Virus record (IMG/VR): IMGVR_UViG_3300030019_000001 | Origin: a virus | Lineage: Duplodnaviria; Heunggongvirae; Uroviricota; Caudoviricetes | DNA length: 64,000 nucleotides | Reading direction: 5' to 3' (one strand) | Part shown: piece after piece, positions 8,468 through 49,710 of the stretch | Layout of the letters: every line of letters begins with the position of its first letter | How positions within the stretch are numbered: the first letter of the stretch is position 1 | Translations under genes and position numbers: made by a program | The notes under the pieces: generated by a model | Database searches by the model: none | Seen by the model: only the letters and a program-made list of their open reading frames with translations | Told to the model about the DNA's origin: nothing

Positions 8468-8683
8468 ATGAAAATTAAAATATTTAAAAACCATGTGAGA
8501 GATTCATATGATTTGAGAGATTTTGAATCTGATATAACCAAATGGTTAAATTACAATAATGATATTGAAATTAAAGAATTTAAACAATCATTTAATGATA
8601 ATAACGAATTAATATACACATTTTTATATTATGATAAAAAAGAATTAAGAAAAGAAAAACTTGATAAAATTAATAAATTATGA
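8468..8683 (+). CDS. hypothetical protein, RKxKL tail
   Basis: Ends LRKEKLDKINKL. Confidence 0.7.
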   Translation: MKIKIFKNHVRDSYDLRDFESDITKWLNYNNDIEIKEFKQSFNDNNELIYTFLYYDKKELRKEKLDKINKL

Positions 8684-8886
8684 AAAATGAAAGATTATTA
8701 GAATTCTATATGTTAGGATTCAAAAATGAAATGGATTATTTTAATGTACCAAATAATGAAATGCTACAAAATGCATACTTAATAGGAAAGAAGCATTCTG
8801 ATGCAGGAGATACTCTAGAATCAACAGCATATTTAACAAACGATATTGTCGAATTTTTAATAGAAAAAGAGAGCTTAAATAATTGA
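8680..8886 (+). CDS. hypothetical protein
   Basis: ATGA overlap with previous gene. Confidence 0.6.
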   Translation: MKNERLLEFYMLGFKNEMDYFNVPNNEMLQNAYLIGKKHSDAGDTLESTAYLTNDIVEFLIEKESLNN

Positions 8887-8908
8887 TTAACAAAGAACTA
8901 TAAATTAT

Positions 8909-8932
8909 ATTTGCAATTTGCAAATTGCAAAT
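8909..8932. repeat. perfect 24-bp palindrome, operator-like
   Basis: ATTTGCAATTTGCAAATTGCAAAT equals its reverse complement; overlaps TATATTTG box at 8906-8913. Confidence 0.7.
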
Positions 8933-9192
8933 TTAAAATATTTATATATAGTTTATGATTGAATATTATTAATTTAATTTTCAATTAATTAAGCAAGAGA
9001 CACTTAACGATTTATCATTTACGTATAAAAATGATACAGATTGTACTATGGTTTAGTTAGTGCTAAATGGATTAGGAATAACCAATTCCCCATTTTTAGG
9101 TGACTTTTTTTATTCAGTAAGATGATTAAGTTGTTTTTTCAAAGTAAATAAAACATCGGTTACATCCATTCATCGTAGACTCAGGTGGAGAT

Positions 9193-9292
9193 AGTTAGGT
9201 GACGAAATGGTTAGACGTTTAGGATTAAAATCCTATTAATGAGGTATCTCAGAGATTAATTTCTCATGCGGGTTCGAGTCCCGCCTTAACTA
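9193..9292 (+). tRNA. tRNA-Leu(TAA)-like, degenerate
   Basis: 7-bp acceptor AGTTAGG/CTTAACT, perfect T arm GCGGG-TTCGAGT-CCCGC, AC stem TAGGA/TCCTA with only a 6-nt loop TTAAAA, about 32-nt variable arm, no CCA. Confidence 0.6.
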
Positions 9293-9340
9293 CAGTTAAA
9301 ATATTAATATACCAAAAATATTTAAAATACTTAAAAAAAT

Positions 9341-9418
9341 GGAATAACGGATTTTATAGCCATTAAAGCGTCAATTTTAAATTGATTAAACTTGGGTTCG
9401 ACTCCCATAATTCCACCA
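9341..9418 (+). tRNA. atypical tRNA-like element, apparent anticodon TTA
   Basis: GGAAT../..ATTCC-A-CCA, T loop TTCGACT, AC stem GTCAA/TTGAT with loop TTTTAAA; non-canonical D arm. Confidence 0.45.
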
Positions 9419-9422
9419 AATA

Positions 9423-9512
9423 GAAGAATGTAAGTTAATCGGTAAACTAGTAGCCAAAAAAGCATTTGTAAAAAATTATAAATTATTACTGGTTCGAATC
9501 CAGTCATTCTTC
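9423..9512 (+). tRNA. pseudo-tRNA, undetermined isotype
   Basis: GAAGAATG/CATTCTTC acceptor, D stem AGTT/AACT, perfect T arm ACTGG-TTCGAAT-CCAGT; anticodon arm disrupted. Confidence 0.5.
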
Positions 9513-9704
9513 CTACAAAATTAAAAATATGAAAACTCATACTCAAAAAAAACAATACTTTATTTAAATTTATATTTGCTGACTATACAGATGTTAGAAT
9601 TGTATATACATTACAAGGTTATAGATATTTAAGAATTTTAGGATATTTATATTTGAAAATAGGTAGACACGGCGGTTATTATGCTGAATAATAAATTTTA
9701 AATT

Positions 9705-9983
9705 ATGAAAACAGAAGAATTAGATTTTAGTAGTTTTTTTGATATAGAAAATCAAAAAATAGAAGAATACACAGAAGAAGATGCTATTCTTGAGAGAACA
9801 TTTATGTTAGATTGTTGCTGTACATGTAAAAATTTTAAAAATTATTATGCATCTGCAGGAATATGCTTATTAGATAAAAACACAAAATCTAAGATAACTA
9901 GATTTGTAGATTATGACGGTCCTAAATGTAATAAATGGGAAGTTTGCGATCAAGATAAAGATTTTTTTGAATCTTTGAAATAA
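9705..9983 (+). CDS. Cys-rich hypothetical protein
   Basis: CCCTCKN..C..C..W. Confidence 0.65.
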   Translation: MKTEELDFSSFFDIENQKIEEYTEEDAILERTFMLDCCCTCKNFKNYYASAGICLLDKNTKSKITRFVDYDGPKCNKWEVCDQDKDFFESLK

Positions 9984-21908: not shown

Positions 21909-21948
21909 CGTCAACTTAAACTTGTACAATTTTGTACATGAAGTGACG
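21909..21948 (-). mobile_element. IS200/IS605-type right-end / reRNA hairpin
   Basis: CGTCACTT-CATGTACA-AAAT-TGTACAAG..AAGTTGACG hairpin at the tnpB 3' end. Confidence 0.5.
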
Positions 21949-23371
21949 TTTGAACTTCTTTTGATGAAATTCCTTGCCAGAGCACACTATTCTTTAAATA
22001 TTTAAAGAAATCGTAGTCGCATTTAATTTTAACTGGATTACACAGTTTAAACATATAATTTTCCAACCAAGAAAAATTATTATTTTTGTTTGATTTTTTT
22101 ATATGATTGACAGCACCGTTCAAATCAGCATTCATTGTTTTATTTATTAGTTTATCAGTAAATAAATCTCTTTTAGAACGAACACCATTTAGTTCTTTAT
22201 CTAACGGATCATTCACATTATCACTAATACATGAGCACTTTGATGTGTAAGATTCATCAATTATATCTACTTGAATTCCAACTTCATTACTTTTATATTG
22301 AATGTAATTTAGTAGTTTTATGAAAGGAATTTGTATGAAATTTTGTTTTACTTTTTTATTTAATTTACAATCACCATTATATTTTAATCTAGCTAGATTG
22401 TATGAAATTGTTAGATTGTTTACAGAATTTAATTTCAATAATTCAACCACACGTTTACTAACTTTATGAAATTGATCATAAAAATAACGATTTCTTTTTT
22501 CATAAATAAATGTCTTATATTTACGTAATTCTATTCCTCTTTTAGTCCACTTAACTGCATATTTAGTACCAGTATTACTGAGTTTAAATTCTATGACTTC
22601 TTTAGAAATTGATTCATTAAGTTTAGACAAGAACCTGTTGAATTTTGAATTATAAGTTTTAAAAATATTTCCGTCAACAATTATTGATTTAGATGTTTTA
22701 TCATCAATAAATATAGCTAATAAATTATTAATACCTACATCTATTCCTGCTTCTTTTATTAATGAATTATTTGTGTTTAATATATCTTCAGTCAAGTAAT
22801 TAAAATGTAAATAAACTTCTTTATTTGAGTAAACGACTTTAAGACTTTGTATATTATCTGGTAATATTTTATGCTTAAAATCAATATAAAACATTTTATT
22901 ACTCAAGTTGATTCCAATTTTATCCTTTTTCTTTATTGAAAATGCAATTTTATCAACTAGAATGGAATATTTAGTCAATAGTGATAACTTTTTTGTACAT
23001 GGAACGTTGGCTTTAACTTTATTTCTTATTTTAGTGAAAAAAGATTTATAATTTGATTTTACTCTTTTAATCAAATCTGAAATATTATGTATTTTAAGAC
23101 TTTTTGATAAAATAATTAATTCATTCATTTTATCATTTTCTTTATATTTATATCTAATAAAATCAACTTCATTTTTATCTTTACCTCCAGTAGTTTCCGC
23201 AAGAATAGCTCTCATTACTTTATAATTAGATAAAAAATTAAAATCATCCTTATTCTCTTTTAATATTATAAGATATAAGTTTTCGAATTGACGATATTTA
23301 AAAATATAATCAATTAATAATTTTTTGTATTTATCTTCTTTTATATGTAATATGAAGTTTCTATTATTCAT
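21911..23371 (-). CDS. tnpB: TnpB RNA-guided endonuclease (IS200/IS605 family), no tnpA seen
   Basis: GIDVGINN, FHKVSK, QNFIQIPF, DESYTSKCS, NADLNGA. Confidence 0.9.
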   Translation of the reverse strand: MNNRNFILHIKEDKYKKLLIDYIFKYRQFENLYLIILKENKDDFNFLSNYKVMRAILAETTGGKDKNEVDFIRYKYKENDKMNELIILSKSLKIHNISDLIKRVKSNYKSFFTKIRNKVKANVPCTKKLSLLTKYSILVDKIAFSIKKKDKIGINLSNKMFYIDFKHKILPDNIQSLKVVYSNKEVYLHFNYLTEDILNTNNSLIKEAGIDVGINNLLAIFIDDKTSKSIIVDGNIFKTYNSKFNRFLSKLNESISKEVIEFKLSNTGTKYAVKWTKRGIELRKYKTFIYEKRNRYFYDQFHKVSKRVVELLKLNSVNNLTISYNLARLKYNGDCKLNKKVKQNFIQIPFIKLLNYIQYKSNEVGIQVDIIDESYTSKCSCISDNVNDPLDKELNGVRSKRDLFTDKLINKTMNADLNGAVNHIKKSNKNNNFSWLENYMFKLCNPVKIKCDYDFFKYLKNSVLWQGISSKEVQTSLHVQNCTSLS

Positions 23372-23389
23372 TTAATTATTATTTAATTA

Positions 23390-24283
23390 TTATTTTTTTA
23401 TTTTAATATACTCATTTATAGATAGTTGACCACAAGATGCTCCAATTGTGAGTCCAGGAGGTACATAGTATTCATGTTTTATTCCTACAAGACTAAATAT
23501 ATCAACAAAGTTTCTAATTTTAGAAATGTTAGATGGTTCAGCGTCTATATTATCTTTCTTGTTATAGAATAAAAATTTAACATTATAACCTTTACCTTTA
23601 ATAAGATTGCTTAATCTCATAGCATCTTCTGATTTATCATTAACATTCTCTATTAGTGCATAATGTATTTCAACATCATTTCCTGTAGTTGCTTTATAGT
23701 AATCAACTGCTGCAATAGTTGGTTCAATTTTCATTGACATTGGCATCCATTGACTTCTTAATTCATCTGTTGTATAATGTAATGATAGATGCAACTTAAC
23801 AGGTAAATTATTCTCTGCAATTTTATTTGTCAATTTGAAAAACTCGATTTTGTGAGATTCAGGTAAAGATGTTGCAAATGCAAATCTAACATATATATCT
23901 TTAAGATAAGTATTTTGAATATTTATCATTGATTCTACAACTTCATCAACATTGGTTACAATTTCACCAATACCCATGGAGCTTATCAATAAAGTTTTTG
24001 GGTTTTCAGATAGTTTCAAATCATTATAAATATAATCAACTCCATTTGAAATCTCTAATGATGTTAGGTTTCTATTTTTAATTTTACCAATATATTCTGC
24101 TGTGTGACAAAATTTGCAGCCTATATTACAAAATGTTGAAACTGGACAGCAAATAATATTTTTACCATCATTCTTATTGATATAAGAAAATTCAACTATC
24201 AATTTATCTTCAGTATAAAAAATATACTTGATAGTGTTGTCTATAGTTGAATGTACTAATTTTTTTAATTCTAATTCTTTCAT
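23390..24283 (-). CDS. RlmN/Cfr-family radical SAM RNA methyltransferase
   Basis: CNIGCKFC, SMGIGE, LSLH, YALI..VND, ASCGQL. Confidence 0.85.
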   Translation of the reverse strand: MKELELKKLVHSTIDNTIKYIFYTEDKLIVEFSYINKNDGKNIICCPVSTFCNIGCKFCHTAEYIGKIKNRNLTSLEISNGVDYIYNDLKLSENPKTLLISSMGIGEIVTNVDEVVESMINIQNTYLKDIYVRFAFATSLPESHKIEFFKLTNKIAENNLPVKLHLSLHYTTDELRSQWMPMSMKIEPTIAAVDYYKATTGNDVEIHYALIENVNDKSEDAMRLSNLIKGKGYNVKFLFYNKKDNIDAEPSNISKIRNFVDIFSLVGIKHEYYVPPGLTIGASCGQLSINEYIKIKK

Positions 24284-32065: not shown

Positions 32066-32410
32066 ATGGGTGCATTTGGTAAAATGTTGATTGAACACTG
32101 GGGAGGTGACATGAAAACATATGAAGGCCATACTTCAAAAACAACTAAGACTGAAATTTTAGAAACAGAAGAAGAATTACAAGAACAAAAAAGTAAATTC
32201 GTAAAACAAAGAATATTATCATATGCCAGGGAGCATCTTGATAGATTAACAACTAATATTATATATAAAAACGAAATTTCTGACAAAATAACTGAAGAAT
32301 TATTTATAAAGTCATATAAGGATATAGGATATTCTACTGATGTTTCAAGTGTGATGTGGTTAGAATATTGTGATTTTATAAAAAAAATATCAAAAAATGA
32401 TAAAAGATAA
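32066..32410 (+). CDS. hypothetical protein
   Basis: ORF in co-oriented run. Confidence 0.65.
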   Translation: MGAFGKMLIEHWGGDMKTYEGHTSKTTKTEILETEEELQEQKSKFVKQRILSYAREHLDRLTTNIIYKNEISDKITEELFIKSYKDIGYSTDVSSVMWLEYCDFIKKISKNDKR

Positions 32411-33335
32411 AAAATTAGTTATAACTTGTGGATTACCAGCAGCAGGAAAATCAAGTATTGTTGAAAAATGGGTTGATTATAAGTGTACATTACTTTCAAG
32501 AGATATTGAAGGTGGTACATTAAGTTCACTCAACAAAAAACTTGAAAACTTGATGATAGATGGAGTAGATATTATCTTAGATGGTACATATTCTACTAAG
32601 TTATCTAGGGCTGATGCTATTGCATTAGCAAAAAAATATGGCTACTATGTATTGTGTCTTTATTTCACAACAAAAATTGAAGATTGTATGTTCAATGCTG
32701 TTACCAGAATGATAAAAACTCAAGGTAGGTTGTTTACAAATTTAAGTGATTATTCTAAAGTTAATGATCCACATATGTTTCCTGTTGCAGCACTTTATAA
32801 AATTAATAAACATTTTGAAGCACCAGAACTATCAGAAGGAATTGATGATATAGAAAAAATTGATTTTAAACGTAAACCATCAGAATATACAAATAAAGCT
32901 ATTTTATTTGATTATGACGGTACTTTAAGAGTAACTAAAAGTGGAGGACATTTCCCTACTGATGTGAATGATATAGAAATTATTCCTGGTAGAACAGAAA
33001 AACTTTTAGAATTACAGAAACAAGGTTATATACTACTAGGGGTTTCAAATCAAAGCGGTATAGCAAAAGGCTTATTAACTCATGAAACTGCAATAGCTTG
33101 TTTTGAAAAAACAAATGAAATGTTAGGAGTTAATATTGATTATAAATATTGTGGACATTCAGTACCTCCAATAATTTGTTATTGTAGAAAACCAGGTGTA
33201 GGATTAGGTGTAGATTTTATTGAAAAATATAAACTTGACTCATCACAATGTACAATGGTTGGAGATTTGACAAGTGATAAAACATTCGCTAAAAGATGTG
33301 GATTCAAATATGTTGACGCTTCCAATTTTTTCTAA
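32397..33335 (+). CDS. polynucleotide 5'-kinase / 3'-phosphatase (P-loop plus HAD IIIA)
   Basis: GLPAAGKS, ILDGT; FDYDGTL, SNQSG, CRKP, MVGD. Confidence 0.85.
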   Translation: MIKDKKLVITCGLPAAGKSSIVEKWVDYKCTLLSRDIEGGTLSSLNKKLENLMIDGVDIILDGTYSTKLSRADAIALAKKYGYYVLCLYFTTKIEDCMFNAVTRMIKTQGRLFTNLSDYSKVNDPHMFPVAALYKINKHFEAPELSEGIDDIEKIDFKRKPSEYTNKAILFDYDGTLRVTKSGGHFPTDVNDIEIIPGRTEKLLELQKQGYILLGVSNQSGIAKGLLTHETAIACFEKTNEMLGVNIDYKYCGHSVPPIICYCRKPGVGLGVDFIEKYKLDSSQCTMVGDLTSDKTFAKRCGFKYVDASNFF

Positions 33336-34988: not shown

Positions 34989-35711
34989 ATGCCAAAAATT
35001 TATGAAGTGGGAGGAGCGGTTCGTGACCGTATTTTAGGAGTTGATTGTAAAGACATTGACTTTACTTTTGTATTAGATGATATGAATCAATCAGTTGAAT
35101 CTGGATTTATGGATATGGAGTTATGGCTACGTAAAAATGGTTACACTATATACAATTCAACACCAAGATGTTTTACTATCAAAGCAAAATTTCCAAAAGG
35201 ACATAAGCATGAAGGATTGACAGCAGATTTTGTAATGGCAAGAAAGGAAATTGGCTATTATGAAGGTACAAGACGTCCAATTTTAGAACTTGGTACACTA
35301 GAAGATGATTTAATAAGACGTGATTTCACATTAAATGCTATGGCTGTTGATGAGAATGGTACTTTGATTGACTTGTTTGATGGTGTGAAAGATTTAAAAA
35401 TGGGAATTCTTAGAACTCCAAGACCATGTGAACTTACATTTGATGAGGACAGCCTACGGATTTTGAGATGCGTCCGTTTTTGTATCACAAAAGGATTCAG
35501 AATGACTGATGATATTGAAATCGCTATCAAAAATTATGATTATGAATCAAAAATGAAAGTAGTTTCTAATGAAAGAATTCAAGATGAACTTACAAAGTGT
35601 TTTAAGTATGATACATTAAAAACAATTTTGATGCTGAATGAATTTCCAGAATTAAGAGATTATATTTTTAAACACACAAAAATGTGGCTGAAACCATCAT
35701 TTCAGAAATAA
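34989..35711 (+). CDS. cca: tRNA nucleotidyltransferase (class II CCA enzyme), head/neck only
   Basis: VGGAVRDRILG, DIDF, RRDFTLNAMA, DLFDG, EDSLRILR, SNERI. Confidence 0.9.
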   Translation: MPKIYEVGGAVRDRILGVDCKDIDFTFVLDDMNQSVESGFMDMELWLRKNGYTIYNSTPRCFTIKAKFPKGHKHEGLTADFVMARKEIGYYEGTRRPILELGTLEDDLIRRDFTLNAMAVDENGTLIDLFDGVKDLKMGILRTPRPCELTFDEDSLRILRCVRFCITKGFRMTDDIEIAIKNYDYESKMKVVSNERIQDELTKCFKYDTLKTILMLNEFPELRDYIFKHTKMWLKPSFQK

Positions 35712-45866: not shown

Positions 45867-46172
45867 AACTGAAACTTTAACATTAAATATTTGGTAGTAT
45901 CAAAAACTTTTATTAATTTTGTACTACAATAAAAAACAAAAAACTTCAAGTAAGAGTACTTGAAAAAGTTCAAAACTTTAACATTAAATATTTGGTAAAA
46001 CAAAAAACTTTTTGTAATTTTGCACTACAATATCAAAAGAAATATAATCACAAAAATTAAATTTCAATTGAAAAAAAGTTCAAAACTTTAACATTAAATA
46101 TTTGGTAAAACAAAAAACTTTTTGTAATTTTGAACTACAATAAAAACAAATCAAATTTCAGATTGAAAAAAA

Positions 46173-47922
46173 TCTAATGGTATAAAAACCTCTCAAAGCT
46201 TGCAAGAGAATGATAGTGCAAATGAACACACTTAGATTAAAGTAATCACAATTTAGTAGTAAGGAAACCACCCTTAATCTTGAACAAGATTATAGTGAAA
46301 CTGAAAATACATAAATTTAATGTTACAGAAGTAAATATAACAAATGAAAAAATGTTATTTCTAATCTGTGAAGATAAAAAGAACTGAAAAATGATTTGAT
46401 TTTTTAAAACTCTTGTAAACGTACTTGAGTAAAAAATGTAGAAAAAATATCAAAAAATATTTGGTAAAACAAAAAACTTTTTGTATATTTGTACTACAAT
46501 AATTTAAATCAAAAAATCAGATTTAAACAAGAAATATCAGCAATATCTGAAATCAGAGTGTATATGTTTGTAACAAAATATATATGAACCAGATGAATTT
46601 GATGCTAATAGTGGTGAGTTAATGATAATGAAAATTATCAAAGATGAAAAGTCCATTGAAATAGATATGAGAACTGTAGAACTTATCTTGTTATAAATGT
46701 AAATAGTAACTACACCGTGGAAATTACCTATCAAATTAATTTTTGATGATGTGTGAACCTAATGTCAGATGATCAGTGACTGACTGCTATTATTTCTCTA
46801 CAAGGACTGACTATTGATTAAATTATAAAAATGATGAAGATAAGCACACAGGGTGCAGCACGATTCGAATTGTGCAGAAGGCAAGTGTTACTGACACTGG
46901 GTTCAACTCCATCTATCTTCACTATGAATATTAATTTTAACACTGAAACACTGACTTGTCAGAAGAAGTAAGTTCCTTGATTATTATTCATAACAAAAAC
47001 AAGTAGGAGTACTTGAAAAAATAGTTCAAACTTTAACATTAAATATTTGGTAAAACAAAAAACTTTTTGTAATTTTGAACTACAATAAAAAAGCAAAACA
47101 TATATCAGATTTAATAGATAATCTAATGGTATAAAATACCACCTTGAAGCTTGCAAAAGGAGATAGTGCAAATGAACACACTTAGATTGATAATAATACA
47201 TTTCGCAGATTTGTAAAGTTACAAGAATAAATATGACAAATGAAAGTTTATTTTTCTAAGCTGAGAAGCTAACAGAACTTATAAATGACTTGGTTTTTTA
47301 ATACTCATTCAAGTAAGAGTACTTGAAAAAGTTCAAAACTTTAACATTAAATATTTGGTAAAACAAAAAACTTTTTGTAATTTTGAACTACAATAATGAA
47401 ACAAATCAAATTTCAGATTGAAGCAATGAAAAATGTAATGGTATAAAATACCACCTTGAAGCTTGCAAAAGGAGATAGTGCAAATGAACACACTTACATA
47501 TTAATTATCTTGCTTATACAATGAGAAATATAATGGTATAGAAACCACCTTGAAGCTTGCAAAAGGAGATAGTGCAAATGAACACACTTATATATTTCAA
47601 ATACAATGAAAAATGTTGATACAGAAATCACCTTGAAGCTTGCAATAGGTGTATAACTATAAATGAACACATGTAGAAATAAACTAAATTGTAAATGAAA
47701 CTGAAAATCTAATGGTATAGAAACCACCTTGAAGCTTGCAAAAGGAGATAGTGCAATTAAACACACTTAGATAGTAAAAGCAATGAAAAATCTAATGGTA
47801 CAGAAACCACCTTGAAGCTTGCAAAAGGAGATAGTGCAACTAAACACACTTAGATATTAATGAAATTGAAAAAGTAATAAAAATAATCAAAGGCAAAAGC
47901 CAACTTGAAGCTTGCAAAAGTG
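46173..47922 (+). repeat. eight copies of a roughly 60-65 bp structured repeat
   Basis: Consensus AATGGTATAGAAACCACCTTGAAGCTTGCAAAAGGAGATAGTGCAAATGAACACACTTAG at 46173, 47122, 47434, 47531, 47614, 47708, 47791 and partial 47899. Confidence 0.85.
46835..46922 (+). ncRNA. tRNA-like cloverleaf with 8-bp acceptor and long variable arm
   Basis: TGAAGATA/TATCTTCA; GCAC/GTGC; GCACG/TGTGC; AGTGT/ACACT; TTCAACT loop with weak T stem. Confidence 0.35.
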
Positions 47923-48429
47923 TACGATTAATATTACAGAAGTAAATGTTGCAAATGTAATACAAATTTAAGGATTTATATTATAACAGTAAATATAATG
48001 AACATACCAAATGTTTATTGTTCCACTGAAAAAAGTTCTGAAAAGAAAAAAATGGACTGAAATAGATTTGTGTCATTTTTCAAGTAAACGTACTTGAAAC
48101 AACAAGAAACAACACATTTAGATTGATTAGTATATATAACTATGAAAATGGTTAATTTACAAGTTTAAAAGGTTAATTCCTTTTATTAGAACTAACTTCT
48201 TTTAGTTAAGAAGTGATAGTATAAATTTTTACTACAATCTAAATGTTTGTTTTTTATTAAAAGCGTTCTTTGTAAAAATTGAAAATATTTGGCTGTCTGT
48301 AGTCATTAAATAAACTACGAAAGTAGGATAAAGTGAATATGTAGTTGTTTCTATATATTTGCGACATTAAATTATTTATTAATCAACAGATACAACAATT
48401 ATTAATTTGACACATTTTTTTGTGTGTAA

Positions 48430-49275
48430 TTGATTTTGCTTCGGTAAGATTCTTCACATACTCATTAATATGAATAGTTAATAGTTAGTTAATTTGTTAT
48501 TAATACATTATTTAGTGTTTGAGCAGACAATCAGGATATCATTAAACCTTAATTATCGAGGGTAACACTGTAGAGAAAGTGGTTTAATGCAAAGGCTATG
48601 TGGGTAGTCTAAGTGAGATGGGAACATCAATAAGAATAACCTGAAGGATTATTGCAAGAAATACGATTTCCAGTTGTATAATTGCGTTGTCCATTATGAG
48701 AGTTAGCTTAAAACCGAAAGGTAATATTAGATTGTAATACAATGTACAGGTGGTGCTGTTATTAAGGTTACCTTAGCATTACCAAGTGCTATGAGAGTAT
48801 CTTAGTTGACTTAAAATATGGAGATAGGGATATCTCAGAGAGTAGTTTAGTATATTTCCGTTCAAAAGATGGAGACGCTGGTTGTCGAACCACTACTTTC
48901 ATTATCCACAAAACAAACTTTAAATTGCAAATTTAATGCACAATTAAAATAAAACAAATAAAGGAAAAGTGTTCGACTGTTGTTGATGAAAGGTGACTAC
49001 TAGTTATGAGATGAAAATCGTCGTAGCCGTGAAGAACCCCAAGTTTGACATGATTTTCAGAAAAATTCCTTAAATCTGTAGCAAGATTGAGTTTGGGTGG
49101 CAACCTAGATAGGTAATAAGTACTGAGAGAGTAATTAACAACAAAAGGATTAGTTAATCTAATTGACTGTCATTGAGAATTACTAATGTTAGGGAAACCA
49201 ATATTAGTGGAAAGAAAGTAGAAACAATAATAACTTTTTAAGATTCTTCTGTATAAGGTATATTTCTCAGCCTAT
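48430..49275 (+). ncRNA. large structured ncRNA candidate (GOLLD/ROOL size class)
   Basis: ORF-free, GC-richer, one UUCG- and four GNRA-capped hairpins, followed by a terminator; boundaries approximate. Confidence 0.65.
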
Positions 49276-49282
49276 TACAAAT

Positions 49283-49322
49283 AAAAACACTACTTAATTC
49301 AATATTAAGTAGTGTTTTTTTT
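49283..49322 (+). terminator. intrinsic terminator
   Basis: 16-bp stem AAAAACACTACTTAAT/ATTAAGTAGTGTTTTT plus T run. Confidence 0.85.
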
Positions 49323-49614
49323 CATTTATTTATTTTTAATAAAAAAATATTAAAATAGGGTTGAGTTCACCCAAATTAACGCTTCAGGAGAGTAAATCCA
49401 TTAGATCCTCTATGAATGAAGAAAAAAAAGTAAAATATTAATTAAAATTTAATGAATTTAATTATTTTTTATCATTTTACCGAACTATCTAACAACAAAA
49501 GAAGTTTAATTATTTCTTAGATTGTATTAGAAGAATACTAATTCAAATGTTAGTGAGAAAAAAATAATAGTTTCTAAAGTTCTTCTCTATAATGCTGTAT
49601 TCTCAAGCAATATT

Positions 49615-49656
49615 AAAAAAAATCCTATCTAATTGAAAAATTAGATAGGATTTTTT
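49615..49656. terminator. bidirectional intrinsic terminator
   Basis: AAAAAATCCTATCTAAT-6 nt-ATTAGATAGGATTTTTT. Confidence 0.8.
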
Positions 49657-49657
49657 C

Positions 49658-49710
49658 GTTATAAGCTATTTCACTTATAAACATAAGTTATAAGCTATTT
49701 CACTTATAAA
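49658..49710. repeat. 24-bp direct repeat, each copy a 7-8-7 inverted repeat
   Basis: GTTATAAGCTATTTCACTTATAAA at 49658 and 49687. Confidence 0.75.

Follow-up and report, generated by a model that had tools for sequence, protein, structure and literature searches.

A predicted four-way-junction RNA module repeated upstream of GOLLD in a large phage, very probably of Bacteroidota

What does a phage gain from a short word that recurs eight times, always on the same strand, in an island without a conserved open reading frame (ORF)? The case arises in a 64,000-nucleotide stretch of a Caudoviricetes virus record (IMGVR_UViG_3300030019_000001), the whole of which is here called the window and supplies the coordinates used below. 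An earlier note on this DNA had described an eight-copy structured repeat, and all eight exact copies of AAGCTTGCA are indeed present on the plus strand, at 46196, 47147, 47459, 47553, 47636, 47732, 47815 and 47908. This 9-mer occurs nine times on this strand of the whole 330-kb record and never on the other, with eight of the occurrences inside 1.7 kb. The copies form the third arm of a 66–67-nt module that is predicted to fold as a four-way junction (helices P1 to P4), and the modules appear to be domains of larger RNAs that lie beside a GOLLD RNA; neither this nor the possible cis pairing of the loop discussed below had been recognized in that note.

A repeated module with covarying stems

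A full module comprises a closing stem P1 (ATCTAA/TTAGAT), P2 (TGGT/ACCA), P3 (CCTT/AAGG), which closes an 11-nt loop with the consensus RAAGCUUGCRA, and, after a purine linker of 5–7 nt, P4 (GTG/CAC). RNAalifold recovers these arms unaided. Full modules lie on the plus strand at 46172–46237 (W1), 47121–47187 (W2), 47433–47499 (W3), 47528–47593 (W4), 47707–47772 (W6) and 47790–47855 (W7). A covariance model (CM) matches W5 (47613–47672, 61 bits), in which a G-C pair of P2 has become A-U and P4 is lost, and W8 (47884–47930), a terminal module of three arms with GGC/GCC, ACTT/AAGT and no P4; all five lineages studied have a terminal module. The GTG/CAC flank described for every copy is therefore missing from W5 and W8, while the full modules carry both that hairpin and TGGT/ACCA as proposed. 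Two features had been overlooked: a degenerate ninth module on the plus strand (46250–46317; CM 36 bits, E 2e-5), whose arm 3 is refolded as a 7-bp tetraloop hairpin, and the closing stem P1, which covaries, with the variants ATGTAA/TTACAT (C-G to G-C, W3) and ATATAA/TTATAT (C-G to A-U, W4). The spacers between modules are AT-rich, uneven (17–40 nt) and related to one another; on these points the alignment agrees with what had been read from the letters.

Two of the compensatory changes first proposed for arm 3 needed revision. For the first copy, CTCT/AGAG was one base out of register; the stem itself stands, as TCTC (46191–46194) with GAGA (46206–46209), and this register gives two true double changes. 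The supposed CACCT/AGGTG variant at 47614 is not compensatory: a U-U mismatch sits in the ordinary stem, and the copy, which has lost the GTG/CAC arm, shows TGAT/ATCA in arm 2. The picture of a fixed loop inside a covarying stem also holds in part, in that the stem is swapped, while the loop is 11 nt long and two of its purines vary.

Is the fold real? A structure alignment of 19 modules, drawn from four lineages, has 95.7% of its cells paired, as against 31–50% in slid controls, and five pairs show double changes; the pairing fraction is partly circular as a measure. Because module copies are related, we used a tree-aware null, which was leaf-based since branch-wise parsimony split the double changes. 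It returned five double-change pair types where 0.6–1.4 were expected (P ≤ 0.007); counted as the number of pairs involved, only three, the result is P 0.02–0.14. Pairing of the modules thus survives shuffled, slid and tree-aware controls. The covariation sits in P1 and P3; in P2 a single double change stands beside several breaks, and P4 shows no double change. On the plus strand G-U pairs are commoner than A-C (about 18 vs 6). Single modules are only marginally stable, and shuffled sequences fold about as well (z −0.04 to −1.9), as expected from their high A+T content.

The loop of arm 3 changes little: across 18 intact modules only two purines vary, while P3 around it is swapped. Three folds compete for it. 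An open 11-nt loop is preferred by ViennaRNA in most intact copies. A 5-bp H-type pseudoknot may instead join UUGCA to UGCAA in the first part of arm 4; it is paired in 98.9% of cells over the 19 modules and is stronger than P4, with three changes that keep G-U, zero double changes and a chance level of 4%. Terminal modules retain the loop and lack the partner strand, so this pseudoknot cannot be the whole reason for loop conservation. The third fold is a CUU-GNRA-RAG hairpin, dominant in the degenerate copies, in which the loop varies as G-N-R-A (GCAA, GCGA, GAAA); it would account for the CU/AG core of P3 as the sole unchanging part of that stem. A G(CUUG)C mini-hairpin was discarded as the loop's reason, since two variants would close it with A-A and its energy is unfavourable.

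Three predicted transcripts ahead of GOLLD

The modules are best described, on present alignments, as domains of three paralogous putative plus-strand RNAs of about 265, 215 and 685 nt. Behind promoters at 46101, 47046 and 47354 starts a leader common to all three, which can pair with an equally common tail lying 265, 215 and 685 nt further on; this duplex beats 1000, 968 and 1000 of 1000 shuffles, respectively. In the predicted RNA 1 (46138–46404) the leader at 46142–46161 pairs with the tail at 46384–46404 (0/1000 shuffles), and a GUGA hairpin lies at 46365–46374. RNA 2 (47083–47298), with one module, would have a weaker closing stem (32/1000) and a GAGA hairpin at 47260–47269 that shows U-A changed to G-C. 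RNA 3 (47391–48076) would hold five modules and the terminal module, a GAAA hairpin at 48036–48047 and a closing stem of 47396–47416 with 48057–48076 (0/1000). Ahead of each tail lie two covarying hairpins, one of them the GNRA hairpin, in which 4 of 8 sequences show the U-A/G-C double change.

Upstream of RNA 1 are three stacked promoters of the Bacteroidota sigma-A type (45890–46132, plus strand; −7 boxes at 45914, 46015 and 46125), and single motif matches precede RNA 2 (47046–47077) and RNA 3 (47354–47385) on the same strand. These had been called orphan promoters, yet each predicted RNA begins just behind one, and most simply they drive RNAs 1–3. The motif TTTG-N19/21-TAnnTTTG, which is the Bacteroidota promoter consensus (PMC7366714), occurs 54 times in the record against 8–21 times in Markov simulations, and Shine-Dalgarno motifs stand ahead of only 0.5% of its genes. 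Given these two features, the host of the phage is very probably a member of the Bacteroidota. The window is the end of the 330-kb record, which has 24% G+C and is 46% complete; proteins of the record also occur on a contig of 711,471 bases, which suggests a phage genome of about 711 kb.

A palindrome, CAAGTA-N4-TACTTG, lies at 45945–45964, 47000, 47310 and 48081, with a half-site at 46412. It lies about 45–60 bp before promoters in all five lineages, is nearly confined to the island within the record, and is a candidate operator of a regulator. Taken together, covariation, promoters and scaffold hairpins support the earlier proposal of a structured, promoter-led, multi-copy RNA read from the plus strand.

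A fourth unit is interleaved with these (46460–46990, plus strand), comprising a promoter at 46460, a putative RNA of about 330 nt and a tRNA-shaped element. This conserved RNA (46497–46830) has the leader start common to RNAs 1–3 and its own closing stem, and is duplicated in lineage D. The tRNA-shaped element (46835–46924, plus strand) also occurs in records L011 and L002 and twice in L162. Its acceptor and D-like stems covary, its T-loop is GUUCAAC, its variable arm is long, its anticodon arm changes freely and it ends in 3′ CTA; it has no Rfam match, and ARAGORN calls it only at a relaxed score.

The order of the island is constant, with GOLLD always after the array, in four further lineages. 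Of these, B and C come from related metagenomes, and the flanking proteins led to D (L162) and E (L164). RNAs 1 and 2 hold one full module each, whereas RNA 3 holds 5, 3, 3 and 1 in W (the present phage), B, C and D, on a fixed scaffold and always with the three-arm terminal module last. The region 45870–49700 contains no conserved ORF and ends in GOLLD; in relatives, stops or frameshifts interrupt its three minus-strand ORFs, in line with the earlier statement that no reading frame is conserved.

Rfam RF02032 matches the GOLLD 3′ domain at 48838–49273 (plus strand, 243 bits). The sequence upstream of the match (48289–48837, plus strand) is conserved in all five lineages, with no consensus promoter directly ahead, and from about 48289 on it is probably the GOLLD 5′ domain, giving a whole RNA of about 985 nt. 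A second, partial GOLLD 3′ end lies at 49507–49608 (plus strand, E 1.6e-5); it is the version that serves as the GOLLD end in B, C and E, which suggests a recombinational swap.

How widely is the module spread? A CM search of this record and of four related ones turned up no modules elsewhere. At E ≤ 10 no family of Rfam matches; Rfam includes ToxI, CRISPR repeats and Csr/Rsm. Literature searches did not find the module described, and INPHARED phages gave no match. Tandem-loop patterns aimed at distant homologs returned unrelated repeats only, looser patterns for the module and for GOLLD returned lineages B and C only, and more distant phages with a PPK2-HAD protein 46–67% identical have no island near that marker. 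The module thus has the marks of a real RNA family, uncatalogued and of narrow distribution, with a reach here of five close lineages, none cultured.

What the RNAs may do

We favour, at a probability of roughly 0.4, the reading that the modules form a binding (decoy) RNA which is abundant, made early and tuned in dosage, and which titrates a host RNA-binding factor. Host RNA polymerase would transcribe the three RNAs early and strongly, and their paired 5′ and 3′ ends would stabilise them. Each module would fold compactly and present one binding surface, its arm 3 being open or else forming a pseudoknot with the beginning of arm 4, while tandem gain and loss of modules would tune the dose. 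The factor titrated during takeover may be a defence RNase or a regulator of RNA or translation. We favour titration because dose varies with a fixed scaffold, as in the expansion of pseudo-ToxI, where dosage-dependent decoys expand in copy number (PMC3475682), and because genes for a tRNA nucleotidyltransferase and a polynucleotide kinase, both within 14 kb of the island, suggest a conflict over RNA. The stacked perfect promoters, and a loop that is near-invariant while its stem is swapped, also speak for a decoy.

Several points weigh against this. The RNAs are predicted from sequence; two metatranscriptomes contained 5–7% of the words, too little to count. The five lineages are close relatives (their proteins are about 70–90% identical) and thus offer few independent changes. 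Copy number in tandem repeats also varies without selection, and the invariance of the loop can be explained in cis by the 5-bp pseudoknot or the CUU-GNRA-RAG hairpin. No partner protein for the module was identified; Ro60/TROVE, the partner for a Y-RNA-like role, was sought and is absent from the five partial records. A host look-alike was not found either, the exact pattern being absent from GTDB species. The multivalent decoy put forward in the earlier note, for which neither a partner nor a host look-alike was found, is consistent with the accordion of copy number and the invariant loop.

The precedents offered for it fit less well. The mode of action may be like that of pseudo-ToxI or CsrB, with family membership in neither. 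Like ToxI and pseudo-ToxI (PMC5086642, PMC3475682), this is an intergenic phage repeat RNA with varying copy number, a possible H-type pseudoknot and A-rich spacers. ToxI repeats are 34–36 nt long and contiguous, with free tails (PMC5086642), whereas the modules are 66–67-nt units with 17–40-nt spacers and tails paired in P1, set within a closed scaffold of larger size. These features and the missing Rfam match speak against a ToxI antitoxin, and type III systems are known mostly from Firmicutes, Fusobacteria and Proteobacteria. A CRISPR repeat mimic (Racr) or mini-array is ruled out, on the features tested, by a unit that is too long, by related and uneven spacers and by the same lack of a match. 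CsrB and RsmZ carry many copies of a hairpin unit on one transcript, as here; in the module, GGA lies at the end of a stem rather than in a loop, and several copies have no GGA, which speaks against a sponge of that type. Beside UG27, phages of Bacteroidota also carry arrays of structured units that are gained and lost (bioRxiv 10.64898/2026.09.22.753630). Those units are about 150 nt long, diverse in sequence and beside a reverse transcriptase (RT), whereas the modules are 66 nt and near-identical. No RT was found among the flanking genes and RVT_1 is absent from the five partial records, so a UG27 or retron RNA was set aside.

The alternative that survives best, although we consider it doubtful, is an architectural RNA, in which RNA–RNA contacts, among modules or between modules and GOLLD, would build a protein-free cage, cargo or condensate. 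The contacts envisaged, an equally tentative part of the proposal, are kissing of the self-complementary AAGCUU and docking of GNRA loops. AAGCUU is present in 19/19 aligned modules, and a loop dimer in trans is calculated at −6.7 kcal/mol. Every RNA has GNRA hairpins with covarying stems, and the CU/AG pairs of P3, a known GUGA receptor, are invariant. Each of the five lineages has GOLLD after the array; GOLLD, OLE and ROOL assemble through palindromic kissing loops (PMC12286853). Set against this, a 6-nt palindrome arises by chance in 10% of shuffled loops, and AAGCUU, which never covaries, is broken in one terminal copy as well as in the degenerate ones. A closed cage also fits the variable number of modules poorly, and the sole 7-nt complement in GOLLD (48652) appears, by sequence reading, to lie in stems. 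GOLLD itself (cryo-EM cages, PMC12286853, PMC12990946) shares locus, strand, phage carriage and structured character with the modules; it uses GNRA loops, a pseudoknot and a palindromic loop, and the modules have GNRA loops, a possible pseudoknot and a palindromic loop. The two have no sequence or model similarity (the GOLLD model matches 48838–49273 and 49507–49608 only, no module), the modules vary in copy number, and assembly is known for GOLLD only.

A reading that draws on both the decoy and the architectural proposals, and that we regard as rather unlikely, is of multi-arm RNAs built from a switchable or pseudoknotted 66-nt domain in accordion number, which would serve as a protein-free multivalent decoy or as an assembly partner of the GOLLD cage and so provide a first handle on the role of GOLLD islands.

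Less probable still is a tRNA-shaped decoy or processing punctuation, whose cloverleaf would replace the tRNAs that usually flank GOLLD and would soak up anticodon nucleases or be cut by RNase P or Z. GOLLD usually lies near tRNA islands (PMC12286853), and the module has four helices in cloverleaf order and about the size of a tRNA. The last seven bases of its loop resemble an anticodon loop (CU-UGC-AA, with variants CU-UGC-GA and CU-UGA-AA), and the same island has a true tRNA-shaped element, with tRNA repair genes nearby. The module has no D-loop GG, T-loop UUCRA or 3′ NCCA, however, its loop is 11 nt against 7, and 2–3 extra bases stand before the closing strand. With ARAGORN calling none of the modules, identity with tRNA is rejected, and a real tRNA cluster lies elsewhere in the phage.

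We attach little probability to DNA-level or neutral repeats, that is, iterons, cruciforms or by-products of a recombining promoter array. The region is full of duplicated promoter blocks, and the poor folding of single modules would suit this view. Double changes, in contrast, swap the sequence yet keep the pairing, the G-U excess and the GNRA loops lie on the promoter strand, and the spacing from copy to copy (83, 83, 93, 94 and 96 bp) has no helical phase. Double-stranded DNA iterons, raised in the earlier note as an alternative, fit neither the changes nor the spacing. AAGCTT is neither depleted nor enriched in the genome, and a restriction-site decoy was likewise rejected.

Weakest of all is a small ribozyme or ligand aptamer in each module, with the array as a self-processing RNA or small-molecule sponge: the compact junction, possible H-type pseudoknot and A-rich linker recall a geometry common to small ribozymes and riboswitches, but no Rfam ribozyme or riboswitch matches at E ≤ 10, the pseudoknot has no double change and a 4% chance level, and terminal modules lack the partner strand.

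Other features of the phage genome

Near the island, the tRNA nucleotidyltransferase (34989–35711), a polynucleotide kinase/phosphatase (32397–33335) and an Fe–S (radical SAM-like) protein (23390–24283) make up an RNA repair and modification set. A TnpB/Cas12f-like gene lies at 21911–23371 (minus strand), and a similar gene is found near GOLLD in L164. A second ORF-free stretch (8683–9705) has two weak tRNA-like matches (9193–9292 and 9424–9512). Beyond the window, at 130915–132299 of the whole record (G000, window-oriented coordinates), a 1.4-kb ORF-free stretch with 29% G+C lies between divergent promoters. Over G000, GAGCTC, GGTACC, GGATCC and CAGCTG are strongly avoided (0.13–0.33 of expected), a hint at host restriction systems.

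Meaning for GOLLD islands and their phages

The structures of GOLLD and ROOL have been solved, and to our knowledge their job is not known. A small, repeated and easily synthesised module that always stands before GOLLD in this clade is a tractable bait for pull-downs and co-assembly. If the modules self-assemble, they would be a natural counterpart of multi-arm kissing-loop RNAs. If they act as a decoy, the very short list of phage anti-defence RNAs would gain a new class, and with it a first entry from Bacteroidota megaphages.
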